Below are positions 15,973 to 62,983 of a DNA stretch of 64,000 nt, one piece after another. A program made the translations under genes and the position numbers. Source of the stretch: Naegleria gruberi (Eukaryota); NCBI GenBank assembly GCA_000004985.1, contig GG738893.1. One strand, given 5' to 3'. Numbering within the stretch: position 1 is the stretch's first letter; each line of letters begins with the position of its first letter. The notes beneath the pieces are model-generated. The model ran no database searches. It was not told the DNA's origin and was given only the letters and a program-made list of their open reading frames with translations.

Positions 15973-17367
15973 ATGACCAAGAAGAAAACAGGAATCATGA
16001 CCAACAACGCACCACCATCATCATCACAAATCAAACAACAAGTGCAAGACACAAAAAACCAAACAAGCCTCCTCAAAAAGCAACTCGACTCTATCGTACA
16101 ACAATATGAACAACAATTGGCAAATTTGGAAAAGTTAGAAACTGCCTTGAATGAGAAGGATGAACAAGTCAAAAGTAGAGAAATTCAAGTCGCTCAAAGG
16201 GAACAATCTGTAAAAGATANNNNNNNNNNNNNNNNNNNNNNNNNNNNNNNNNNNNNNNNNNNNNNNNNNNNNNNNNNNNNNNNNNNNNNNNNNNNNNNNN
16301 NNNNNNNNNNNNNNNNNNNNNNNNNNNNNNNNNNNNNNNNNNNNNNNNNNNNNNNNNNNNNNNNNNNNNNNNNNNNNNNNNNNNNNNNNNNNNNNNNNNN
16401 NNNNNNNNNNNNNNNNNNNNNNNNNNNNNNNNNNNNNNNNNNNNNNNNNNNNNNNNNNNNNNNNNNNNNNNNNNNNNNNNNNNNNNNNNNNNNNNNNNNN
16501 NNNNNNNNNNNNNNNNNNNNNNNNNNNNNNNNNNNNNNNNNNNNNNNNNNNNNNNNNNNNNNNNNNNNNNNNNNNNNNNNNNNNNNNNNNNNNNNNNNNN
16601 NNNNNNNNNNNNNNNNNNNNNNNNNNNNNNNNNNNNNNNNNNNNNNNNNNNNNNNNNNNNNNNNNNNNNNNNNNNNNNNNNNNNNNNNNNNNNNNNNNNN
16701 NNNNNNNNNNNNNNNNNNNNNNNNNNNNNNNNNNNNNNNNNNNNNNNNNNNNNNNNNNNNNNNNNNNNNNNNNNNNNNNNNNNNNNNNNNNNNNNNNNNN
16801 NNNNNNNNNNNNNNNNNNNNNNNNNNNNNNNNNNNNNNNNNNNNNNNNNNNNNNNNNNNNNNNNNNNNNNNNNNNNNNNNNNNNNNNNNNNNNNNNNNNN
16901 NNNNNNNNNNNNNNNNNNNNNNNNNNNNNNNNNNNNNNNNNNNNNNNNNNNNNNNNNNNNNNNNNNNNNNNNNNNNNNNNNNNNNNNNNNNNNNNNNNNN
17001 NNNNNNNNNNNNNNNNNNNNNNNNNNNNNNNNNNNNNNNNNNNNNNNNNNNNNNNNNNNNNNNNNNNNNNNNNNNNNNNNNNNNNNNNNNNNNNNNNNNN
17101 NNNNNNNNNNNNNNNNNNNNNNNNNNNNNNNNNNNNNNNNNNNNNACTAAGAAAACAAACACTTCTGATTTGAATTCAAATGTTTTAGGAACAAAATCAA
17201 ATCATTTCAAAGTTAAACTCATATCTAATTGTAATAGTTTAATGATTGGATTTGCACCTAAAAGTATTAATGTGAACGAAACAAATAATAATACAAAATG
17301 TGGATATTATTTATATACTACTACTGGAACCATTTATTCTCAGAATGGAGAATCAAACAAAAGCTAA
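15973..17367 (+). CDS. coiled-coil protein with a C-terminal SPRY-like segment, copy 1 of a local family; interrupted by a 926-bp N-gap
   Basis: The N-terminus is a Q-rich coiled coil (MTKKKTGIMTNNAPPSSSQIKQQVQDTKNQTSLLKKQLDSIVQQYEQQLANLEKLETALNEKDEQVKSREIQ). The C-terminus after the gap reads HFKVKLISNCNSLMIGFAPKSINVNETNNNTKCGYYLYTTTGTIYSQNGE, which is SPRY-like. The middle is unknown (N-run). Confidence 0.5.
   Translation: MTKKKTGIMTNNAPPSSSQIKQQVQDTKNQTSLLKKQLDSIVQQYEQQLANLEKLETALNEKDEQVKSREIQVAQREQSVKDXXXXXXXXXXXXXXXXXXXXXXXXXXXXXXXXXXXXXXXXXXXXXXXXXXXXXXXXXXXXXXXXXXXXXXXXXXXXXXXXXXXXXXXXXXXXXXXXXXXXXXXXXXXXXXXXXXXXXXXXXXXXXXXXXXXXXXXXXXXXXXXXXXXXXXXXXXXXXXXXXXXXXXXXXXXXXXXXXXXXXXXXXXXXXXXXXXXXXXXXXXXXXXXXXXXXXXXXXXXXXXXXXXXXXXXXXXXXXXXXXXXXXXXXXXXXXXXXXXXXXXXXXXXXXXXXXXXXXXXXXXXXXXXXXXXXXXXXXXXXXXXXXXXXXTKKTNTSDLNSNVLGTKSNHFKVKLISNCNSLMIGFAPKSINVNETNNNTKCGYYLYTTTGTIYSQNGESNKS
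16220..17145. other. assembly gap (926 N)
   Basis: Run of n characters. Confidence 1.
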
Positions 17368-17479: not shown

Positions 17480-18973
17480 TTACAGGTCATAAATATCTAC
17501 ATGATCTGCTAAATTCATTTCTCGAATGTATTTTTCACCCTCATCGCTTATATTGTTGTCAACTGCGTTAAGTCTTGTTAATTGCTTCATTCCACTTAGG
17601 GCTTTAACGCCTTCGTCACCAATTTCATTGTAACCTATATCTAGAAAAGTTAATTGTTCCATTTCACTTATAAATTTGGCTCCCTCATCTCCAACAGCAT
17701 TGTGATAGATAGAAAGCTGTGCTAGGTGCTTCATTTCACTGATTTGGTTTGCACTTTTCTCTCCAATATTATTATGAGCAATTATTAGATACGTTAAATT
17801 ATCCATTTTACAGATATATTGTATACCTATTGGTGTAATATCAATACTAGAAACATTAAGTTCAGTTAATTGGTTCATTTCACTTATAGATTGGACTCCG
17901 TTATCCCTAATTCGATTATCAGAAATGTCAAGCTTAATTAAATTTTTCATTTGGCTAATGTGAATAGCCCCGTACGGTGTAATCAAATTTTCAGCTATAG
18001 AAAGATGAGTTAATTGATTAAATGATGAAATGTATTTTGTTCCATCCAATCCAATACAACAACTGTTCACATTAAGATCTGTTAATTGTTTCATTTCTCC
18101 AAAACACTTAACACCGTCATTAATAGAATTAAACCCAATATCGAGTTTCCGTATATTCATCATTTCACTAACATACTTGGCACCGTTCTCGCCTATATTA
18201 TTACTAGCAATATCAAGATTAGTTAATTGTTTCATTCCACTAATAAATTTGGCTCCTTCGTCACAAATATTGTTGCCAACAATTTTAAGACCAGTCAACT
18301 GTTTCATTTCACTAATAAATTTTGCTCCATCCATAGTAATTTCATTGGCACGGATATTAAGAAAAGTCAACTGTTCAAGGCCACTAATATACTTGGCTCC
18401 TTCTGGGCCAATATTATTATTAGCAATATGAAGTTGTTTCAATTGCTTCATTTCACCAATATACTTGGCTCCTTCTACACCAATATAATTACCCGTAATA
18501 AGAAGATAAGTTAGTGATTTCAATGATGGTAAATGTTTAGCAATATCAAATCCAAAATAACAGAAAGTCATATAAAGATCAGTCAATTGTTCCAATGAAC
18601 ATATATACTTGAATCCACTTGGATCAATCTTAGAATTAAATTCTATATTGAGTTTTTTCAATTCTTTCATCGAATCCAATATCTCACAATTAAATCCACC
18701 TTCATTCTCTATCACTCTTAGATTTGCAACATTTTCCAAAAACGGCAATTGACCAACCATTTCCAAATCACTACTACGTGTTATCGAGAGGTGTTTACAT
18801 GAATTTTTAATGACATGAAACCACTGTTTGGAAACCAATGCACACCTCTGTACAATAAATTTAAAATCATCGTGAAAAGATAAAATTTCAAAGAGTGAAT
18901 CGTCAGAGAATAGATTATTTTCTTGTATTTTCGAAAATGAAGAAGTGATGGAATGTTTTGGTTGTGTGATCAT
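17480..18973 (-). CDS. F-box-like / leucine-rich-repeat protein (RNI-type 28-residue LRRs, ~14 repeats)
   Basis: 497-aa ORF. The N-terminus has an F-box-like motif (LFEILSFHDDFKFIVQRCALVSKQWFHVI). Perfect RNI-type LRRs follow, e.g. NNIGPEGAKYISGLEQLTFLNIRANEITMDGAKFISEMKQLTGLKIVGNNICDEGAKFISGMKQLTNLDIASNNIGENGAKYVSEM. Confidence 0.8.
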   Translation of the reverse strand: MITQPKHSITSSFSKIQENNLFSDDSLFEILSFHDDFKFIVQRCALVSKQWFHVIKNSCKHLSITRSSDLEMVGQLPFLENVANLRVIENEGGFNCEILDSMKELKKLNIEFNSKIDPSGFKYICSLEQLTDLYMTFCYFGFDIAKHLPSLKSLTYLLITGNYIGVEGAKYIGEMKQLKQLHIANNNIGPEGAKYISGLEQLTFLNIRANEITMDGAKFISEMKQLTGLKIVGNNICDEGAKFISGMKQLTNLDIASNNIGENGAKYVSEMMNIRKLDIGFNSINDGVKCFGEMKQLTDLNVNSCCIGLDGTKYISSFNQLTHLSIAENLITPYGAIHISQMKNLIKLDISDNRIRDNGVQSISEMNQLTELNVSSIDITPIGIQYICKMDNLTYLIIAHNNIGEKSANQISEMKHLAQLSIYHNAVGDEGAKFISEMEQLTFLDIGYNEIGDEGVKALSGMKQLTRLNAVDNNISDEGEKYIREMNLADHVDIYDL

Positions 18974-19419: not shown

Positions 19420-19469
19420 NNNNNNNNNNNNNNNNNNNNNNNNNNNNNNNNNNNNNNNNNNNNNNNNNN
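19420..19469. other. assembly gap (50 N)
   Basis: Run of n characters. Confidence 1.
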
Positions 19470-20723: not shown

Positions 20724-20961
20724 NNNNNNNNNNNNNNNNNNNNNNNNNNNNNNNNNNNNNNNNNNNNNNNNNNNNNNNNNNNNNNNNNNNNNNNNNNNNN
20801 NNNNNNNNNNNNNNNNNNNNNNNNNNNNNNNNNNNNNNNNNNNNNNNNNNNNNNNNNNNNNNNNNNNNNNNNNNNNNNNNNNNNNNNNNNNNNNNNNNNN
20901 NNNNNNNNNNNNNNNNNNNNNNNNNNNNNNNNNNNNNNNNNNNNNNNNNNNNNNNNNNNNN
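20724..20961. other. assembly gap (238 N)
   Basis: Run of n characters. Confidence 1.
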
Positions 20962-42330: not shown

Positions 42331-43970
42331 ATGTTAACACGAAACAGAACAGACTCAAATTCTTCGGATCTTTCAACAGGAAGCTATGACAGCGGATCAG
42401 CAGGCAGTGGAAAGGAAAATCTCTTCAAACAAATGTATGCGTAAGTGTCTCCCAATATTACATATATATGTATTATTAATTTGTTGAAACAAAATCAAAA
42501 ACTTCGGAAAATCCTTACGATACATACAAATATCATCAAAATATTTATTATAATATGTGATGAATAATATATTAAAATAGTCAACGTGATTCCATTTCTT
42601 TAAAATCTGGCAAATTAGTAAAACAAGGTAAAACAGTGAAAAATTGGAAGGAACGTTTTTTCATGTTGAGAAGAGATGGACTCTACTATCATGAATTGAC
42701 TACAAAGGGACAAGCAGGAAAGCTGAAAGGTAAAATTTCATTTAAGGAAATCAAGGGAAATCCAACTTGTATTCAGAAAGTAACGGTTACTGTTAAAAAC
42801 AAACAGAGATCAGCAATTTCTATTGAACTTCCTGAACGTGTGTATTTTGTCTATTCTGAATCTGAAATTGAATTCAACGATTGGTACAAATCAATAATTC
42901 AGGTCTTGTCAATGAAGGATGAAGAACCAGCATCAAGATTGACTCCACGTACAGGAACACCAAATACTCCAACAAGTGGGACAATTACACAAGATATTTT
43001 CAATACAAAACCAGCAGCATCACCAAGTGGTGGAAGTGGAACTTTTGGAACACCTCCATTGAGAAGTTTTGATTTGAAGAAAGCTTCACCATCATCAGCT
43101 TCACCTCTTGATTATGGTTCATCACCAATGGATTTCAAACGTACTAATAGTAATTTATCGGATGTGACGACAAGTGATGATTCTGACACAAGCTCCTATC
43201 AAAAATCATTACATGGTGACTTGTTATCGGAATTTGATGAATTTGGTGCCGCAAGAAACAGTGATGCAGAGAGTGTTGATTTTGAACAGCAACCACAACA
43301 AAATGTTGGACCAATCTTGACTGAAGATGATGAGTACAATATTGCAATGAGTGCTGTTGAAATTTTCCTCAAGAAGGAAGAAGAACGAACACCACACGAG
43401 CAAGCATACATTATTGCTCTCAATGATTACAGAAGAAGGTTGGATGAACATGCAAGGAGAGCGAATGCTCGTCCAGAATATTCACTCGCTGTTGGAACTT
43501 GTATATTTTTAACACCAGAAAAGGATAGAACTATCTCAGAACAGGAATATGTTAAGGATGTATTGTCTGCTTTCTTTGAGGATCAAAAAGAATCTGATAA
43601 GAGTAGATTGCTACCTCTCAAGATTCAAATGGATATTGTAAAGGCAGCTAAATTACTCAAAGAAAAACCAGAAAATCAAAGAACAGAAGAAGAGAAGCAA
43701 TATATTTCAAGAGTTGAGGAAATACAGAGACAACTCAATAGATTCTCTCTCAAGAATGGTTTGAAAATCAATCACTCTCTTTCCACACTCCCTCTCCAAT
43801 TACTAACAACAGAGAAAACCAAAGAACCACCTCAACATCCACTCTATCACAATTGTGCCATTAGAGAAGCTGATCCACAAGCTGCAGATGATGAAAAACC
43901 AAATTTACTCTCCGTAGAAGAGAATGATTTCCTCCAGGTCTTTATCGATCAAAACAACCTTAATTTCTAA
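42331..43970 (+). CDS. PH-domain protein with a long disordered/acidic C-terminal region. Exons 42331..42440 and 42581..43970
   Basis: A 140-bp GTAAGT...AAATAG intron (42441..42580) joins MLTRNRTDSNSSDLSTGSYDSGSAGSGKENLFKQMYA|QRDSISLKSGKLVKQGKTVKNWKERFFMLRRDGLYYHEL...KISFKEIKG...VYFVYSESEIEFNDWYKSIIQVL. The PH signature is KNWKxRxFxL...W. Confidence 0.65.
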
Positions 43971-44497: not shown

Positions 44498-46344
44498 ATG
44501 GTAAAAAATTCATCACCTCCAACCAATGGAGAATATCAACCAACACGGATTGAATTATTTAAGCAAAATCATGATATTGCTTTTAATTTCTTGAAAAAGG
44601 GTATTGAACTTGATGAGAGCAAACAATTGGAAAAAGCCAGAGATTACTATCGTGAGGGTATGTAAAAAATTGTTGTAAAATTATTGTAACTGATGATTTT
44701 TTAGGCATTCAATCGATTCTACAAGCAGAAAGAGTTCCTCTCTCACAACAGGAAAGGTATCAAGCAAAAGCCATGTTGGATAAACTTTCAAAACACAAAA
44801 CCATGTTTTATGAGAGAGTGAAAGAAATTGATCAAATTCTTTTCAGTCAACAGCAAGCAAAACAAACTCAATTGGATAATCTCAGCAATAACAATGCAAG
44901 TGGAGGATTTTTCTCTGGGTTTATGAAAATGTTTTCACCACTCTCAACACCTCCTAACAGTTCATCCAACAATAATAGTAACACTCAACAAGCTATCTCA
45001 CAAGAAACAAGAAAATTGTGTAGTGTAAATAATAATAGACACGAGCCAATCTATAATCAATATACGACCAACAGCCAAGTGATTAGGAGCTTCCCAGCAG
45101 TTTCTTCAATTGGTCAATCTTCAACCAACATGTACAATAGTGTCAATATTTGTGATGGTATTTCTTCATCTGAGAAGAGAAGTCCAACACCACCAAGAAA
45201 TAGAAGTAATTCAAATGATAAGATTTTATTTGGCCACTATGATGCTCTTGGATCACTTCCACAAAACAACATGGGTCACTATCAACAACCACCTCAACAA
45301 TCATCTCAACAACAACAGCAACCTTTAGTTCCAAAACAAAATTCTGTAACTGCACTCAGAAATACTACCTCAGCAACATCATCAACAACAACAGCTAACA
45401 ATAAGAAACCTTCCCTTGATCAAATTCCAGAACTCAAAGGTGTTGATAGGAAACTTTTGGATCACATTTTGAATGAAGTGATTGAAACAAAAACAACTAA
45501 TTGGGATGACATTGCTGGACTTAAGGATGCCAAACAAACACTTCTTGAAACAGTAATCTTACCAAGTATAAGACCTGATCTTTTTAATGGACTGAGAGCT
45601 CCATGTAGAGGTATTTTACTTTTTGGACCACCTGGTACAGGTAAAACAATGATTGCAAGAGCATGTGCCTCTCAATGTAATGCTACTTTCTTTTCTATTA
45701 GTGCTGGGTCCTTAGTTTCGAAATATCATGGCGAAGGTGAAAAATTAGTGAGATGCTTATTTGCTGCTGCCAGATATTTGCAGCCGTCTGTGATATTTAT
45801 TGATGAAATTGATTCGATACTATCTGCACGTAGCTCTGAAGAACATGAGGCTAGTAGAAGAATGAAAACAGAGTTTATGATTCAAATGGATGGTGTTAGT
45901 AATATGAATGGGAAAGAAGATAGAGTTCTTGTAATGGGAGCTACAAACATTCCAACCGAATTGGATGAAGCTATTCTCAGAAGATTCACCAAGAGAATAT
46001 ATATACCTCTTCCTGATCATGCAGCAAGAGCATCACTCATTAAGCAACTTTCACATGGTCAAAATATGAGTTTGAGTGAAACCGATATCAACAAGATTTG
46101 TGTAGCCACTGAAGGATTTTCTGGAAGTGATCTGACAGCCCTGTGTAAAGAAACGTCAATGGTTCCTCTGAGAGAAATAAGTATGGATCAACTCATTTCT
46201 ATAGATGCACGAAAGATTAGACCAATCGTGCTCAAGGATTTCCAATCTTCTCTCGTGCATGTTAGACCTTCCACATCACAAGATACTATTAAGAAGTTAG
46301 AAAAGTGGAATGAAAGCTATGGAACTTTTGCAAAGGGTATTTAA
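44498..46344 (+). CDS. meiotic-clade AAA ATPase, spastin-like (MIT-like N-terminus plus AAA+ plus Vps4-C-like end). Exons 44498..44657 and 44705..46344
   Basis: [103 protein letters not shown]...RVLVMGATNIPTELDEAILRRFTKRIYIPLPD is almost collinear with human spastin ([102 protein letters not shown]...). The 47-bp intron 44658..44704 (GTATGT...TTTTAG) lies inside the MIT-like region. Confidence 0.85.
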
Positions 46345-47833: not shown

Positions 47834-50800
47834 ATGAATTTACTTCATGCTTTCACCATCTTGTTGTTGGTTTTCACTCTCATACTCCAAATAACCAATG
47901 GACCTGTCGAATGCCAAACCATCAACACAATTGCTGGCTCGCTTCCATATGGCTATAATGGTGATAATCAAGTGGCAATAAAAGCAGAACTCTACCAACC
48001 AAAACAATTGGCTTATTACAATAACGAGGTTTATATTGCTGACAGTGCCAATCATATGATTAGAAAAATACTTTCGAATGGGACAATAGTTTCGATTGCT
48101 GGTTGGATGGGTTCACCTGGCTATAATGGTGATAATCAATTGGCTAACATGGCTAAACTCAATGCTCCAAATGGTTTGGCAATTTCTTCTGCCACAGGTC
48201 ACATCTATATCGCGGGTTAGTTGTTAATTTTTATTGGAATTTAACTTTTGCAAGATACTCAAAATTATCGAGTTAGAAAGATTGTAAATGGTGTCATTTC
48301 AACAATTTCTGGAACTGGAGTACAAGGCAGTTGTTCAGATGGAGTTCTAGCTATCAACTGTGCATTATACTCTCCATCCAATATTGCTATTCGAACTATT
48401 GAAGGAGTTGGTGATGAAATTTACATTGCCGATTCGAGTATCGTTAGGAAGATTGGAACAGATGGAAAAATCTATAGATATGCAGGTGGAGGCAATGAAA
48501 ATATTGAGTATGGCTCTGCAGTTTCAGCTCAACTTGCCTCTCCTCTCAGTGTTGGAATTTCACCCACTACAGGAGAGCTCTTCATTGGAATAGGAATCAA
48601 TTATATTATTAGAAAGGTCTTTCTGAATGGTACAATAGTTTCTGTAGCGGAGAAGGAAAGTTCTATTCAGGGTTTTGTTTCGGGTGTTACTGGAATATCA
48701 TTTTCAAATACTTCTCTCTATTACACAGAGTATCAGGCACGTGTTAAACAACTATTCCTCTCAAATGGAACATTTTCTGTTATTGGTGGAAACCTTAATG
48801 TTATGGTTACCAATTATCAAGATAACATTTTGGCAACAGATGCCACTCTATTAGGTCTGAAAGGAATTGCATTCTCTCCAGAAAAGAATGAAGTGTATAT
48901 CTCTGAATATGATTCATTCGCTACTAATGGAAGAGTGAGAAAGATTGGATCTGATGGATATATTGTAACAGTGGCAGGTAATTTGACAAGTTTGAATAGT
49001 GGATATAATGGTGATGATATTATGGCCACGGATGCAAAATTGTATAGACCTGAGGCTGTAATAGTTTCTAATAGTGGGGATGTCATAATTTCAGATACTG
49101 GTAATAGTAGAATTAGAAAGATTCTGTCTAGTGGTAAAATTGTGACCATTGTTGGACAAGGAAACTTTGGTAATACTGCAAATTATAATGGAGATGGTAT
49201 TCCTGCTATTGCTGCAAATATCAAATTTCCAAGTGCTATTTTACTTTCATCTAGCAATGAATTGTACATTGCCGATTTTGGTAATTATCGAGTTCGAAAG
49301 GTACTTGCTAACGGAACGATAACAACCATCGCAGGAACAGGTTCTAACATAGAATCTACTGCCTTAGATTTGGCCATTAATGTTGGAATTGGATCACCAA
49401 TAGGTTTAGCTATTTTTGGTGATGAGGTTTATTTCACCACAAATTCCAATAGAGTTAGAAAGATTTTGAGTAATGGAACTTTAATAGTCTATGCAGGTAC
49501 TGGAACAGTTGGCTATGATTCAAATAATGTATTGGCCGTTAATGCTAAACTAAATGCTCCAACATTCTTGGCTGTTTATCCTAATGGAGATTTGCTGATT
49601 TCAGATAGTTTCAATTATATGATTAGAAAAGTTCTGACAAATGGTACCATTATTCGAGTTGCAGGAACTGGAACATTTGGATACAATGGAGACAACATCT
49701 TGGCTATAAATGCCCAATTGGCTAATCCACAAGGAATTCATATACTTTCGAACGGTGATATTCTATTCTCAGATCAGTTCAATTATAGGGTGAGAAAAAT
49801 TCTGACCAATGGAACAATTTTAACAGTTGCTGGATCTGGAACTTTTGGATACAATGGAGAAAATTTACCAGCTTTAAGTACACAATTATATGCAGCTCAG
49901 GGCTTGGCAGTTTCACCTATCGATGGTTCGATTATTTTAGCTGACACGTCAAATCACAGAATTAGGAAAATATTAGATTTCTGTGATTCGAATAGAACTT
50001 GTAATAATAATGGTTTCTGTAACACAACCTCTAATCAATGCGTTTGTTATTCGGGATGGATTGGGTCAACATGTTCCTCCTTTTCATGTGATGCCTTAAA
50101 CAATTGTAATGGAAATGGAAAGTGTATTGGAAATAACACTTGCCAATGTGATTTGGGATGGAGAGGAAATTCTCAATGCAGTCAATATTCATGTGAAATT
50201 TACAATAATTGTTATGGAAATGGAATGTGTGTGAAAAACAATACATGTGAGTGTTATTCTGGATGGAGAGGATCATCTGCTAATTGTTCACAGTTTTCAT
50301 GTGATGGAGTGGCAAACTGCTCAGAACATGGTATTTGTATGGGAAATAATTCATGCTCATGTCACACTGGATGGAAAAATAACCAATGCTCAGAAATTTC
50401 ATGTGACATTCTCAATAATTGTTATGGAAATGGCATTTGTAAAACGAATAATACATGTGAATGCAATTCAGGATGGAAAGGTGCCTCAAATTGCTCTCTT
50501 TTCACATGTGAAGGTGTTGGAAATTGCAGTTCTCATGGAAAATGTATTGGAAATAACACTTGCCAATGTGATTTGGGATGGAAAGGAAATTCTCAATGCA
50601 GTCAATTTTCTTGTGAGATTTACAATAATTGCAATGGAAACGGATATTGTAAAAGTAGCAATAGTTGTGAATGTAATTCTGGATGGAAAGGTTCATTAGA
50701 TTGTTCCCAATTCTCATGCGAAGGCGTCAACAATTGTTCATCTCATGGTATTTGTTATGGAGCCAATACTTGTGTATGTGAAAAGGGATGGAAAGGAAAT

Positions 50801-52102
50801 TCTCAATGTTCTCGTCCATCATGTGAAGAATTGCAGAATTGTAATGGTAATGGAAACTGCACACTCAATGGCAACTGTTCCTGTAATAGTGGCTGGGAGG
50901 GAGCTGATTGTTCCACCATTTCAAAAGTGATAGCAGCCAATGAATCCAATAATAATACTGTGACCATTGTAGTGACAGTTGTGGCTGTAGTCGTTGTTTT
51001 ATTGATTATTGCTGCCATTGTGATAATAGTCATAGCAGTTATATTGTCAAGAAAGTATGTGAAGAAACCTAGCAATGAGTCGAAGCATGAAACAATTTTG
51101 AAGAATGATTTTGAGCTCATTGATGAAAATACGAATAGCAATACCATGACGTCGATGAAACCTGTTGAAACCATCCAATCGACGTCAATGAACGAAACCT
51201 CAATAGTTTCAGATTACCCATCTGATTCATTTCTTAGCTCAACAAAAGTTTCCTCCATTGTTTCGTCATCAGCAAAACCACTCACTCCAACTAACTCTTC
51301 AAGTCAATTCTCAATGCTTAAGGATCGTTATCAGATACAGGAAGTAATTGGGCAAGGATCTTTCGGCAAATGTTTTCTTTGTTTAGATTTGAAAAAACAA
51401 AATCAACCAGTTGCTATCAAAACCATAAGTATAGGAGAGAACAAACACTCAAAGATCATTGATGAATGCTCCAAGACTATTTCTTACAAACATCCAAGAT
51501 TGGTACAAGTTTATGAATTCTTCGAATCTGAACTTCTCAATTCAATTTGCATTGTAATGAAATTTTACAATGGAGATTTGGAAACACTATTGAAAAAGCA
51601 ACAAGGATTCCTACCTGAAAGTATGATCATCAAAATGATGAAACAATTAGGTGATGGTTTGGATTATCTTCACAATGAAAAGATGATTATTCACAGAGAT
51701 ATCAAACCAAAGAATATTTTCATTGAATCATTCGATATTGAAAGAGAGGAAATCAATGTAGTTATTGGAGATTATGGAGAAGCAAAGGATCTGGGAGAAA
51801 CCAGCAATACAGTTGCAGGAACAATTATCTACATGGCTCCAGAGGTCTTTTCCAGAAAATATGATTGTAGCGCTGATATATTTTCTCTGGGAGTGACACT
51901 TGTACAAAGTATGTCAGCAAGTGGATTCGATTTCTCAGTCACGGACAAACTCATGTACGAAGCAGAGGAGAGTGTACTGCAAAGAGTGAGTGAACATTTA
52001 CTTTCCAGAAACTATTCGATTCATTTGTGTGAGTTTGTAATTTCCATGTTATCAAGAGATCCTAAAAAGAGACCTACCTGTTTAGATATTAAGAATTATT
52101 GA
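47834..52102 (+). CDS. receptor-type protein kinase with a signal peptide, ~11 NHL repeats, ~12 tenascin-type EGF repeats, a TM helix, and a kinase domain. Exons 47834..48215 and 48255..52102
   Basis: Signal peptide MNLLHAFTILLLVFTLILQITNG. NHL blades end in ...N(H/Y)(M/R)(I/V)RK(I/V) (SANHMIRKI, TQNYRVRKI, GNSRIRKI, FNYRVRKI, SNHRIRKI ...). A 39-bp GTTAGT...CAAG intron (48216..48254) lies between blades 2 and 3. EGF repeats follow (CxCxSGWxGxxCSxFSC, 49980..50900). The TM helix is VTIVVTVVAVVVVLLIIAAIVIIVIAVIL. Kinase motifs: GQGSFGK, AIK, HRDIKPKNIF, DYG, YMAPE. Confidence 0.8.
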
Positions 52103-52239: not shown

Positions 52240-53012
52240 ATGTCTCCAGAATCGAAGTCGGAATTGAACCTCGTTACCATCACAGAAAATAATAGTCAAG
52301 AAGCAACAAGTTCCTCTCTTGATCAAGCATCATCTTCATCACCAACTACGACGGTGGGTGGTTATAAATTTGAAGAAAAATTTGGTGATTTATTCTCATC
52401 AGAGGATTCGATTTGTCATTGTGTGAGTGAGTGTTTATCTATGAGCAAGGGAATTGCAACCTTTTTCAAGGATAAATATGGTAGAGTGGACGAATTGAAG
52501 AAACAGAGAGCCAAGACGGGTGGTCTTGCTGTTTTGCACATTCCAGAGGAAGGAAAATATATCTAGTAAGTTTTTGAATTTATTCTTTTTTTGTAAACAT
52601 TATTGAAATATTATTCATTCATAATATTAATTTTAATAATATGCTCAATAGCTATTTGGTCACTAAGGAAAAATACTACCTGAAACCAACTTATGAAACT
52701 CTGACCTCGAGTTTGCAAGCCATGAAGAAGCATGCCCAGGAACATTCTGTAAAGAGAATTTCACTCCCATTAATTGGGTGTGGTTTGGACAGATTGTCAT
52801 GGTCTAGAGTGAGACAAATTTTGGATAACACGTTTGGAGATATGGACATGACATTAACACTTTACAAAATTGAAAGCAATAACGACAACAATTCAACAAG
52901 CTCACGTGGTAGAAGTAACAACAGTAGCAATAACAGAAGAGGTAGAGGTGGTGGATCAAGTCAAAAACGTTCTGGAAATTACAACTCTGGAAACAATAAG
53001 AGAGTGAAATAA
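52240..53012 (+). CDS. OARD1-like: OARD1/TARG1-type macro-domain protein (O-acyl-ADP-ribose deacylase-like) with an RG/S/N-rich tail. Exons 52240..52565 and 52652..53012
   Basis: [129 protein letters not shown] is collinear with human OARD1 (YKFEE..GDLFS...[76 protein letters not shown]...[20 protein letters not shown]). The 86-bp intron is 52566..52651. Confidence 0.8.
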
Positions 53013-53966: not shown

Positions 53967-54821
53967 ATGCAATCATCTTCCGATTCTCATCCCATCATTA
54001 AAATTATAAAAATCATTCATGGGAGTGAGATTAGACGTTTTTACTTTTCTCCGAGTAGAATCAATACATTGCAACAATTACATGAAAAGATTAGGGAAAT
54101 ATTTGGATTGGCTAGTGATTTTAGAATTATTTTGGTATTTGGAGCAAACAAGGTCATCTCTTCCGATGATTCTCTGTTGTATTTGATAGAGAGTGCTATG
54201 GCTGATCAAAGTGATTTGATATTTAAATTGGTGGATAAGGAACCTGTGGTGGAGAATGTTGCGCTCTCTGTTGAGGATTTCATATCAAAGGTTCAGACAA
54301 TGACCAAGCAGTTGAATATTAATGATAAGGGCATTCTCCTCAACAAGTGTCTGAATTATTTGGAAATTGAATTGAATAATGCAAAGGCAATTGTACCCAC
54401 TGCTGCAGTGGAGAATACAGGGAATACTCTTGTGGAGACTCCTACTGAAAAGACAAAATATGGACAGAAGTTGGCTAAATTTATGGGTGATGTCACAATA
54501 CCTGATCAAACTGTTATCAAGCCATCTACTAAATTTGTAAAAACATGGAAATTTAAGAATTGTGGAAATAGACCTCTTCCAAAGAATAGTAGGCTCATGT
54601 TCTTGAAAGGAAACAAGCGAGTGAATCATTTCAATAGTCCTCCTTTTGTGGAATTGGGAAATACAGAAAATCAAATCAACCCAGGTGATGAGTTTGTTGT
54701 TTCAATAGAATTACAGACCCCAGAAACCGAAGGTGTATTATCATCCTATTTCAGAATGGCAGATGAAAATAGTGAACCATTTGGGCAAAAGGTTTGGGTT
54801 TGTGTGAATGTTGTCAAATAA
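53967..54821 (+). CDS. NBR1-like short protein with a PB1 domain and an NBR1 FW (N_BRCA1_IG) domain
   Basis: PB1: IIKIIKIIHGSEIRRFYFSPSRINTLQQLHEKIREIFGLASDFRIILVFGANKVISSDDSL. FW domain: GDVTIPDQTVIKPSTKFVKTWKFKNCGNRPLPKNSRLMFLKGNKRVNHF...PGDEFVVSIELQTPETEGVLSSYFRMADENSEPFGQKVWVCVNV (compare NBR1 FVRHVTLPDGTQLPPGTKFIKTWRLRNSGTVAWP...RFVGGDQF...QGQWRM...G...FGDVIWV). No ZZ or UBA domain is visible in this ORF. Confidence 0.65.
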   Translation: MQSSSDSHPIIKIIKIIHGSEIRRFYFSPSRINTLQQLHEKIREIFGLASDFRIILVFGANKVISSDDSLLYLIESAMADQSDLIFKLVDKEPVVENVALSVEDFISKVQTMTKQLNINDKGILLNKCLNYLEIELNNAKAIVPTAAVENTGNTLVETPTEKTKYGQKLAKFMGDVTIPDQTVIKPSTKFVKTWKFKNCGNRPLPKNSRLMFLKGNKRVNHFNSPPFVELGNTENQINPGDEFVVSIELQTPETEGVLSSYFRMADENSEPFGQKVWVCVNVVK

Positions 54822-60885: not shown

Positions 60886-62983
60886 TTAATGCTTGTTGTT
60901 AAATTTACACTTAATGAGATATCTCAAATTGGCTTGGGCAGTATCGTAGATAATAAATTCATTGTACAACAATGAACCACTTCTTTGAACTTGTGTTGGT
61001 TTACCAAGTGGAACTTTAATCTTTTGACCACTACAACTAGAATCAATTTCCAAAAATTCATTATTATCTGGTTCAGTTCTACCTTGACCCCAACATGAAT
61101 GTAAATCTTTTGGCAATTTAGTAACAAATTCAGCTTGAGTTCTATTATAAGTATTACCCAAAGCAACTTCAGTAAGTAAAAGCAAACCACTATTGTTTGA
61201 CAAGTGAGCATGACAATAGTTTGCTGACTTACTACACATATCAGCAAAGTAAACACCCTTACCAACTATTAAATAATAATAAATTAACTTTGAAATAACT
61301 TGAATAACTTGAAACTTACACATATAACCAGTAGCTGGAGCTTCAGGAGGAGCAATTCTCAAACCTTGAGAAAGGATACCAACAAAGTTTGTACTTCTAG
61401 AACCGTGGAAAAGAAGTTGCTTATTACTAATACTATCACTCTTAGCAACATATTTTTCTGTTTCACCATGTCTATTAACAACGAAAGCATCTTCTAATTC
61501 AAGAGTATAATAAGAGTGAGTTGGAGCGTGAGTATTTTGAATAAATTTGTTAATCCACTTCCATTCTTCAGAATCCTTAGCAATTGGTGTAATATCAGTC
61601 TTCAAATCACTATAAATTGAATCAACAATATTGACATCTGACTTTTTAGAAATAATCTTAGAGGCAATTTCAAGTTCACTTAATGATTCAACTAACTTGA
61701 TCTTTTGTTCCAATTGTGTCTTGGTTCTAATAACTATTTTTAAAATTAATTATCATCATTTAAAAAGTGATATTAAATAATAATAACTTACTTGGTGGAA
61801 CTTGTCTATGTCCAAATTGATGAGGAATAATAGTGTAGAATCTTGATGAAAGTGATTCCAAATCATCATCATCATTTTTACCATCAATTACATCTTGAAT
61901 CTTTTTAAGAACTTCATAACCACCTTGAACTTGTTTCTTTGAAAGTTTACCAAGTGGCATCTTATTTGTATCAATTTCAAATTCACGTAAAGTTTGATCA
62001 ATAAAAGATTTGTTACTGATAAATTTAACTAAATCTTGAACTCTAGAATCAAGTTTAGATTCTACAACCTTCTTTTCTTTCTTTTCTTCCTTAGCTTCAT
62101 CATCTTCTTCTTCTTTTTCATCATCATTATCTTCACTATAATCAATTTCTACAAAATCATATTTTCCATTCTTAAATTTGAATGAAGATCTCTTTGACCA
62201 TTCATTACCAGTCTTATCTTTAAACTTTTTAGCAAAGTCATCTTTAGCTTTTTGTAAACTAGCCATCTTTGATAACTTAGATTGTCCTTTTGCAGAAACT
62301 CTACCCCATCTATTAAAAACATAGTATGAAGATCCACTTTCAATCAATTGGATAATATAGAATTTGTTATTATTATTTCCAATATTTGTTTGATTGAGAG
62401 TAGCACTCCAAATATCATTTCCTTCAATATAAACTTTACCAGAAGTTTGCATACCAGATTCTAATAATTAGAATAAATTATTTTGTTAATTAATTAAATA
62501 ATTTTCGTGAACATACCTTCATCAACAGGAACTTTACCAGTTGAAACAACCTTCTTCTTCTTAGAGGCTGGTTCTTCAACCTTTTCTTCTTCTTCTTCCT
62601 CTTCCTCCTCTTCTTCTTCCTCATCTTCTTCTTCAGCCTTTCTCTTCTTTGAAACCTTCAATTCAAATGATGCAGAGTCAAGCCTTTGTTAAAATGGAGA
62701 TAAATTCCATCAATGATCATCATAATTATACCTACAATTTTTCTTGTTCAGCCGATTGATTAATAAAATCACTATTAACAACTTTAATTTTCTTAGTAAA
62801 GGCTGATTTGACTGTAGCTCCATTTTCATTGACAGCCTTCTCTGTAGTAACCAAATAATTGGTATCATTCTTTACGGATTTGTGAATTGTACCTCCTTCT
62901 TCTTCGATCAATTCAACAAGTTTGGATTTTTCACCTCCGTTGATGCCAACAAAAGCAAAGTTCAAATCATCAAATATACCCAT
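60886..62983 (-). CDS. poly(ADP-ribose) polymerase, PARP1-type core (BRCT, acidic/NLS linker, WGR, helical domain, catalytic) but lacking N-terminal zinc fingers. Five exons: 62736..62983, 62517..62683, 61792..62460, 61320..61733, 60886..61265
   Basis: BRCT: MGIFDDLNFAFVGINGGEKSKLVELIEEEGG...TNYLVTT. Linker: KKRKAEEEDEEEEEEEE...KKKK. WGR: GKVYIEGNDIWSATLNQTNIGNNNNKFYIIQLIE..YYVFNRWGRVSAKGQ (compare PARP1 [28 protein letters not shown]...YWIFRSWGRVGT). HD: [22 protein letters not shown]...SSRFYTIIPHQFG (compare [22 protein letters not shown]...SNRFYTLIPHDFG). CAT: LLFHGSRSTNFVGILSQGLRIAPPEAPATGYM|FGKGVYFADMCSKSANYC...LLLLTEVALGNTY...LLYNEFIIYDTAQANLRYLIKCKF (H-G-S ... Y ... E triad). Introns are 52, 56, 58 and 54 bp (GTAGGT/GTATGT/GTAAGT ... 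TAG). Confidence 0.85.

Follow-up and report, generated by a model that had tools for sequence, protein, structure and literature searches.

A Naegleria gruberi gene for a type I receptor serine/threonine kinase with an NHL and teneurin-type EGF ectodomain

The detailed study of a single stretch of protist DNA can reveal how familiar extracellular modules have been joined to signalling domains. In this study, we have analysed 64,000 nucleotides of Naegleria gruberi DNA (contig GG738893.1 of assembly GCA_000004985.1; the whole stretch is called the window below), in which a gene on the plus strand at 47834..52102 encodes a protein of 1409 amino acids (aa) with the architecture of a type I receptor serine/threonine (Ser/Thr) kinase. 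This architecture is shown by the evidence: from the N-terminus, the protein consists of a signal peptide, 12 NHL blades, nine EGF repeats, a transmembrane (TM) helix, a disordered linker of ~90 aa and a kinase domain, and Pfam, run on the spliced 1409-aa protein, matched Pkinase (E-value 1.3e-47), EGF_TEN (2e-42), TEN_NHL (8.9e-39), EGF_Teneurin (1.7e-30) and NHL (9.3e-30). We consider it likely that this is a receptor Ser/Thr kinase which crosses the membrane once and belongs to a family found, per the databases, only in vahlkampfiid Heterolobosea (Naegleria and Willaertia), and that it signals in the way its architecture would imply. A preliminary description of this DNA had proposed a receptor in which a cytoplasmic kinase is joined to an NHL propeller and to EGF repeats of the tenascin/teneurin type, and the Pfam matches together with the topology support that proposal.

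The gene has two exons, 47834..48215 and 48255..52102, and runs from an ATG at 47834 to a TGA at 52100..52102, exactly the limits that had first been given for it. No N runs fall inside it, and the window DNA as a whole is AT-rich (~33% GC). Exon 1 holds residues 1-127 and the first base of codon 128, that is, the signal peptide and NHL blades 1-2 with a Pfam NHL match, while exon 2 holds residues 128-1409 and the stop, with NHL blades 3-12, the EGF array, the TM helix, the juxtamembrane region and the kinase. Between them, on the same strand, lies a spliceosomal intron of 39 nucleotides (nt) in phase 1 with GT..AG ends (48216..48254). When unspliced, the 128-codon open reading frame (ORF) from ATG 47834 reads out of exon 1 into a stop codon in the same frame (TAG, 48218..48220). 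After splicing, the blade consensus is complete again: the junction reads GHIYIAD-TQNYRVRKIV (the hyphen marks the splice), giving a blade end, IYIAD-TQNYRVRKI, that matches the family consensus YIADxxNxRIRKV. A transcriptome study of Naegleria set the minimum intron length at 30 bp, from predicted genes (PMC8296547), and the 39-nt intron is therefore within the acceptable range. The exon-2 ORF has also been called, as P0001, on an ENA metagenome contig (99% identity), and a copy of the gene with 98.6% nucleotide identity is present on the ENA metagenome contig L001. The intron is identical in L001, so that the comparison is uninformative on this point. Over the gene, the window and L001 differ in 31 codons synonymously and in 22 non-synonymously, with no frame-breaking change, and because of this ratio and the unbroken frame we take the gene, on the strength of the sequence comparison, to be real, intact and under purifying selection.

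Residues 129-1409 are covered by one ORF (48248..52102, 1284 codons), and because the EGF array, the TM helix and the kinase share this uninterrupted frame, the protein is not a fusion of two genes. The preliminary description had allowed that the TM-kinase portion might belong to a separate gene; no stop separates the two, and the reading as one gene is also backed by paralog models in three Naegleria species with the same NHL-EGF-kinase order. It can still be asked whether the long protein is an artefact of the gene model, made of adjoining NHL-EGF and kinase genes or hiding an unrecognised intron or stop between them. Gene predictors do struggle here, as the public model P0002, which joins NHL directly to kinase, illustrates. 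However, no stop occurs from residue 129 to the terminal TGA, the open frame is kept in a second strain, every segment matches a domain model or a motif conserved in the family, the models P0003, P0004, P0278 and P0285, made independently, have the same order, and a TM-less kinase after a signal peptide would be topologically senseless. We regard an artefact of this kind as hardly credible. P0002 itself is the ortholog in N. gruberi NEG-M, sharing 88% identity in the linker and kinase and 64% in the NHL region. In its model, the first EGF is followed directly by the linker motif YPTDSF, so that EGF2-9 and the TM helix (window 50040..51215) are left out, and another 21 residues are missing where the intron lies (window 48216..48320). 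Because a secreted NHL region fused to a kinase is topologically implausible, we take P0002 to be probably mis-spliced, either because an intron was modelled wrongly or because the reference assembly has collapsed a repeat.

The NHL region (47912..49975, plus strand; residues 27-701) spans the intron and is supported by its closing motifs, by an AlphaFold2 (AF2) model and by superposition. The preliminary description had counted about 11 blades and had called their closing motif, N(Y/H)R(V/I)RK(I/V), unusually regular. We find 12 closing motifs, at residues 73, 131, 188, 243, 288, 352, 411, 471, 525, 581, 637 and 694, with a spacing of 45-64 residues (mostly 55-60); the motif occurs in its exact form in only four blades, and it corresponds to the general consensus (YIADxxNxRIRKV) of the NHL arrays of bacterial type to which the protein aligns. 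The AF2 ectodomain model, which covers blades 3-12 and lacks blades 1-2, has a pLDDT >90 over most of its blades. About 340 residues of it superpose on complete six-blade NHL propellers: SOQ1 (7djj; TM-score 0.81, root-mean-square deviation 2.6 Å), NHLRC2 (6g7w; TM-score 0.78) and also Pizza6. The region thus has the NHL-repeat beta-propeller fold, six-bladed and built of repeats of ~40-60 residues, and the 12 blades probably form two tandem six-bladed propellers, as far as this model can tell. The best solved match to the NHL sequence is the NHL domain of the teneurin-like protein (TLP) of Bacillus inaquosorum (9ifo, E 5e-50); animal teneurin-2 is matched at E 1e-22 and the sensor of PknD (1rwi) at E 5e-6, and NHL proteins from bacteria and metagenomes, numbering in the hundreds, can be aligned along its full length (~650 residues) with 33-36% identity. 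By the E-values (5e-50 against 1e-22), bacterial NHL arrays are closer to the region than animal teneurins are. Some JGI names, for instance 'sugar lactone lactonase YvrE', hint at a lactonase or other enzyme, but this reading of the NHL region was rejected; the naming is generic, and the Pfam matches to Str_synth and Arylesterase lie below the cut-offs. The ectodomain carries 25 N-glycosylation sequons. Three cysteines are found in the NHL region, at residues 27, 154 and 163 (47912..47914, 48332..48334 and 48359..48361). C154 and C163 could form a local disulfide, which would leave C27, conserved in the N. gruberi ortholog, unpaired and a possible site for an intermolecular disulfide.

Following the propellers, nine tightly packed six-cysteine EGF repeats occupy residues 704-1013 (49982..50911, plus strand) and contain 54 cysteines (9 x 6). 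About 12 repeats had been proposed, a figure that has to be lowered to nine. Their assignment to the tenascin/teneurin type is borne out by the EGF_TEN and EGF_Teneurin matches given above, and the array also matches the EGF regions of teneurin-3 and teneurin-2 (E 3e-20). At the DNA level, the central EGFs coincide with a tandem repeat (50115..50808, plus strand; Tandem Repeats Finder score 642) with a period of 210 nt, which corresponds to a unit of two EGFs, in 3.3 copies with 70% matches, and the EGF sequences alternate between an A-type and a B-type. The repeat points to a recent duplication of the two-EGF unit.

The hydrophobic N-terminus, MNLLHAFTILLLVFTLILQ, is a signal peptide and aligns with the N-terminus of P0002. 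The single TM helix that had been proposed is recovered both by hydropathy and by AF2: one segment, at residues 1030-1058 (50960..51046, plus strand), holds the Kyte-Doolittle maximum of 3.89 and is followed by the basic SRKYVKK, and AF2 places a helix at residues 1028-1060. The juxtamembrane linker (51047..51328, plus strand; residues 1059-1152) is rich in Ser, Thr and Asn and is predicted to be disordered (pLDDT <50). At residues 1114-1120 (51212..51232) it contains the motif DYPSDSF, which aligns with DFPSDTF, DFPSDMS, DFPSEQS, DFPTDDS and DFPSTSI in relatives. This D[YF]PS[DT] motif is conserved in most kinase subfamilies of three Naegleria species and Willaertia, falls in the region that AF2 predicts to be disordered, and was not seen in P0129, P0130/P0276, P0142 or P0143 in the family alignment.

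The kinase domain (51329..52093, plus strand; residues 1153-1407) is of the RD Ser/Thr type and is modelled by AF2 with a pLDDT >90. It has a Gly-rich loop (GQGSFG, 1160-1165), the VAIK Lys (K1183), the alpha-C Glu (E1198), a catalytic loop of the HRDxKxxN form (HRDIKPKN, 1274-1281), a DFG-type Asp (in DYG, 1300-1302) and APE (1322-1324), so that the HRDIKPKN, DYG and APE motifs reported in the preliminary description are all present. K1183, E1198, D1276, N1281 and D1300 are invariant across the family. Judging by the residues present, the kinase should be catalytically competent and of Ser/Thr type. The DYG to which attention had been drawn earlier does exist. It is a conservative change found only in the subfamily of this protein, and DFG is present in the sister subfamilies.

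The catalytic loop HRDIKPKN and the subdomain VIII sequence GTIIYMAPE (GTxxYMAPE in the family) are Ser/Thr signatures, and Pfam scores Pkinase at 163 bits against 106 bits for PK_Tyr_Ser-Thr. With the single sequence, the best solved matches are MST3/MST4 (STE20), calcium-dependent protein kinases (CDPKs), NEK7 and ULK1 (E 1e-25 to 1e-22), and with a profile of 12 family kinase domains, CDPK, NEK1/2, ULK1-3 and STK24 come top (~1e-42 to 1e-38). NEK, ULK, CDPK/CAMK and STE20 kinases therefore match the kinase to a similar degree, and it is specific to none of these groups. Foldseek, with the AF2 model of TM helix, linker and kinase, behaved in the same way, as CLK, ASK1, EGFR, WNK, ULK and SRPK all scored ~E 1e-16 and no group was singled out; NCBIfam gave matches to bacterial kinases at sub-threshold level only. 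Because of the two signatures and the ranking of solved relatives, we assign the domain, from its sequence, to the unclassified ("Other"-like) Ser/Thr eukaryotic protein kinases, and neither to the receptor tyrosine kinases (RTKs) nor to the tyrosine kinase-like (TKL) group. Best human match of an N. fowleri "NHL domain serine kinase" is given as Nek2 in the supplement of PMC8296547, which agrees with the Ser/Thr class.

If the kinase had tyrosine or dual specificity, the protein would be an unconventional RTK. Specificity is not readable with certainty from sequence, PK_Tyr_Ser-Thr also matches (3.5e-30), and Foldseek includes EGFR and the dual-specificity CLK/LAMMER kinases among its many equal-scoring matches. 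However, the loop is HRDIKPKN instead of the HRDLAARN or HRDLRAAN of tyrosine kinases, subdomain VIII reads GTIIYMAPE, Pkinase leads PK_Tyr_Ser-Thr by 57 bits, and none of the top 60 single-domain sequence matches, with either the protein or the family profile as query, is a tyrosine kinase. The one tyrosine kinase at the top of the profile list is an EGFR chain matched in two stretches, with a score that adds the two together, and the other tyrosine kinase stands near the bottom. An RTK is thus quite improbable. The kinase classification that the preliminary description had suggested as a check placed the domain in no standard RTK family, its top solved relatives being MST3/4, CDPK, NEK and ULK, and of the possibilities raised there a Ser/Thr kinase of a lineage-specific family is the one favoured by the sequence matches and by the relatives in Naegleria and Willaertia.

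These relatives were collected by an exhaustive search of 1.84 billion representatives with the cytoplasmic part of the protein, which gave 122 cluster representatives at E <1e-30; it was used instead of a word-indexed homolog search with the kinase alone, which returned eight matches and missed known paralogs. The nearest matches with a C-terminal kinase are P0004 (61%), P0129 (52%), P0130 (50%), P0142, P0143, P0175, P0179 and P0195. The best named relatives are Naegleria proteins, and of the ten that were looked up, nine belong to N. gruberi, N. fowleri, N. lovaniensis or Willaertia magna, while P0129 lies on an ENA contig. The search for paralogs that had been called for thus reveals a multi-gene family with members in these four species, at least seven of them in N. 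gruberi; by tblastn with the protein, there are none elsewhere in the 64-kb window. The order NHL-EGF-TM-kinase recurs in independent models from N. gruberi (P0003, P0004 and P0142, XP_002674840), N. fowleri (P0278, XP_044563041) and N. lovaniensis (P0285, XP_044543675), and NHL with kinase and no EGF is found in P0175 (XP_002674300), P0195 (XP_002675547), P0253 (XP_002678153) and P0143. Most relatives carry NHL or NHL plus EGF ectodomains, even at 33-37% kinase identity, an exception being N. fowleri P0276, whose ectodomain has no Pfam match.

The kinase of the window protein clusters with the Naegleria clade, and it shares with its relatives (33-88% identity) the order of signal peptide, NHL, in some cases EGF, TM helix, linker with the D[YF]PS[DT] motif and C-terminal kinase. 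The gene is therefore a member, with a better gene model, of an unnamed family of NHL receptor Ser/Thr kinases in Naegleria and Willaertia. It differs from the relatives in having the longest EGF array seen, nine repeats as compared to 3 to about 7 in P0004 and P0003, and in belonging to the DYG subfamily. Outside Naegleria, the closest kinase relative is that of W. magna (P0268/P0286), which has an RCC1-type propeller instead of NHL and a catalytic loop with HGD, not HRD.

The ectodomain is also found on other outputs. P0053 and P0056 combine the NHL-EGF cassette with short cytoplasmic tails, and P0102 combines it with a GPS-7TM-RGS unit (7TM, seven-transmembrane) that resembles an adhesion G-protein-coupled receptor (GPCR). 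In P0068, NHL blades without EGF are joined to a 7TM-RGS unit, and Naegleria 7TM-RGS/NHL relatives are also among the candidate adhesion GPCRs in the supplement of PMC8296547. As the NHL-EGF cassette occurs on a kinase, on a short tail or on GPS-7TM-RGS, it behaves as a portable module, which suggests that this ectodomain has been shuffled between outputs.

Based on this architecture, a mechanism can be proposed. The signal peptide would send the N-terminal ~1000 residues outside the cell, where the two propellers would sit at the tip and the nine disulfide-locked EGFs would act as a stalk holding them off the membrane. The propellers may bind an extracellular ligand or surface, for example bacterial prey, the substrate or another cell, and such binding would cluster the receptors. 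The clustered RD kinases could then phosphorylate one another in trans, on the short activation loop (DYGEAKDLGETSNTVAGTIIYMAPE), on the juxtamembrane linker or on both, and the signal would be relayed to cytoplasmic targets. The faster divergence of the ectodomain (64% identity with the ortholog, against 88%) fits a sensor that tracks its ligands, without being proof of one. Several points weigh against this picture. The 39-nt intron is called from the sequence, the signalling steps are read from the architecture, and the split into two propellers depends on an AF2 model that begins at blade 3. The EGF stalk is poorly modelled by AF2 (pLDDT <50), and its rigidity would be that of its homologs. 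The public P0002 model of the ortholog has no TM helix. Finally, the cysteine count is even in each of the nine EGFs, and a teneurin-style covalent dimer through odd-cysteine EGFs is therefore not available.

It could also be that the protein serves mainly in adhesion or as a surface coat, in the manner of teneurins and tenascins, with a kinase that is constitutive or regulates the trafficking of its own receptor. Many Naegleria surface proteins with NHL-EGF have only a short tail (P0053, P0056), the EGF and NHL domains are most like those of adhesion proteins, and the N. fowleri genome paper calls the adhesion factors of Naegleria unidentified. Nevertheless, no part of the protein is better conserved than the kinase (88% identity, as compared to 64% in the ectodomain), and every catalytic residue has been kept while paralogs diverged to 33-37% identity. 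This conservation, together with the invariant catalytic residues, argues for selection on a catalysis tied to the ectodomain, and we therefore think a role confined to adhesion unlikely, and keep the receptor kinase as our preferred reading.

Among known systems, the closest functional analogue is PknD of Mycobacterium tuberculosis, whose sensor is a six-bladed NHL propeller (1rwi). Both proteins have an extracellular NHL propeller, one TM segment and a Hanks-type Ser/Thr kinase. In PknD, however, the kinase is N-terminal and inside and the propeller C-terminal and outside, an order that is reversed in the window protein, and PknD has one propeller and no EGF stalk, unlike the 12 blades plus EGF found here. 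The window protein is also not of the PknD type by sequence, since NCBIfam PknD (PRK13184 equivalog) gives 50.6 bits against a cut-off of 839 and the sensor match is weak (E 5e-6). By analogy, the receptor may work most like PknD or a plant receptor-like kinase (RLK). The preliminary description had remarked that NHL and EGF ectodomains are not usually attached to a kinase, which needs qualification: the joining of NHL and kinase is not unprecedented, as both PknD, with its reversed topology, and the whole Naegleria family demonstrate.

In teneurins, EGF2 and EGF5 have an odd cysteine count and give rise to covalent cis-dimers, whereas the window protein has no odd-cysteine EGFs and all nine have six Cys. 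The teneurin-type EGF array and the NHL region are shared with teneurins and bacterial TLPs (9ifo; PMC13018210), with EGF membrane-proximal and NHL distal in both. The teneurin family is defined by a type II topology, a superfold of FN-plug, NHL and YD-shell, and a C-terminal ABD/Tox-GHH (PMC13018210). The window protein is type I where teneurins are type II, and has 12 blades instead of 6 as well as a C-terminal kinase; no FN-plug, YD/RHS shell, ABD or Tox-GHH was found in it by Pfam. With none of these domains matched and the opposite topology, the protein is not a teneurin. Plant RLK/Pelle kinases, the transmembrane kinases (TMKs) of Entamoeba, TGF-beta receptors and animal RTKs are kinases of the TKL or TK groups, and each of them has expanded in one lineage. 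They have in common with the window protein a signal peptide, a repeat-rich ectodomain, one TM segment and a C-terminal kinase, and to our knowledge none of them uses an NHL-EGF ectodomain.

The rest of the window offers a draft scaffold with ordinary content around the gene. Directly downstream on the plus strand is a two-exon gene with a Macro domain (52240..53012; Macro 1.8e-5 in the second exon; apparent intron of ~86 nt with GTAAGT at 52567), and ~8 kb beyond it, on the minus strand, lies a gene with a PARP catalytic domain (60886..61713; 3.8e-61), so that an ADP-ribose reader/eraser and a writer are close together. Other neighbours on the plus strand encode a Vps4/katanin-like AAA ATPase (44773..46344), a PH-domain protein (42636..43970) and a protein with an NBR1-type Ig-like domain (53967..54821); these three are ordinary eukaryotic genes unrelated to the receptor kinase. 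Runs of N at 16220..17145 (926 nt), 19420..19469 (50 nt) and 20724..20961 (238 nt) are assembly gaps, and the apparent dip to 17% GC at 16-18 kb is due to such runs. A 72-nt tandem repeat (4.6 copies, 68% matches) lies at 18160..18493.

Orthologs and paralogs of the gene have been public since the N. gruberi genome under the names "predicted protein", "NHL repeat-containing protein" (among them P0003 and P0004) and "non-specific serine/threonine protein kinase". In the Naegleria literature that we searched, no paper was found that describes an NHL receptor-kinase family. In the polymorphic-toxin paper of Aravind, Naegleria comes up only in connection with toxin and immunity domains that are unrelated, and the 'NHL domain serine kinase' of N. 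fowleri V212, g2570, is listed in a table of genes differentially expressed between mouse-passaged and axenic amoebae (PMC8296547 supplement). The family is therefore catalogued in Naegleria genomes and uncharacterised, with minimal prior notice. As to its origin, we put forward only tentatively, and with more doubt than conviction, that NHL-EGF could be a bacterial-type sensor cassette that the Naegleria lineage acquired and wired independently to a kinase, to 7TM-RGS and to a short tail, so that receptor-kinase signalling would have been invented independently in Discoba, with an ectodomain that tracks variable ligands. Were this true, the ectodomain would diverge faster by tracking the surfaces of bacterial prey or of conspecific cells, and the differentially expressed N. 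fowleri member would tie the family to host contact.

In conclusion, the window supplies a complete gene model, whereas in the reference model of the N. gruberi ortholog the EGF array and the TM helix are missing. Receptor kinases arose several times in eukaryotes, as the RTKs of animals, the RLKs of plants and the TMKs of Entamoeba attest. A Discoba-specific kinase that is neither TK nor TKL, joined to a teneurin-like NHL-EGF ectodomain, would represent another independent solution and a eukaryotic counterpart of PknD. The finding is of moderate interest for protist signalling and for the origins of teneurins and receptor kinases, and is not surprising in kind. Three hallmarks of the family could serve for re-annotation and for experiments: a D[YF]PSD motif in the linker, a division into subfamilies with DYG and with DFG, and an NHL-EGF cassette held in common with 7TM-RGS receptors. 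They may also be of relevance to surface recognition in the pathogen N. fowleri.

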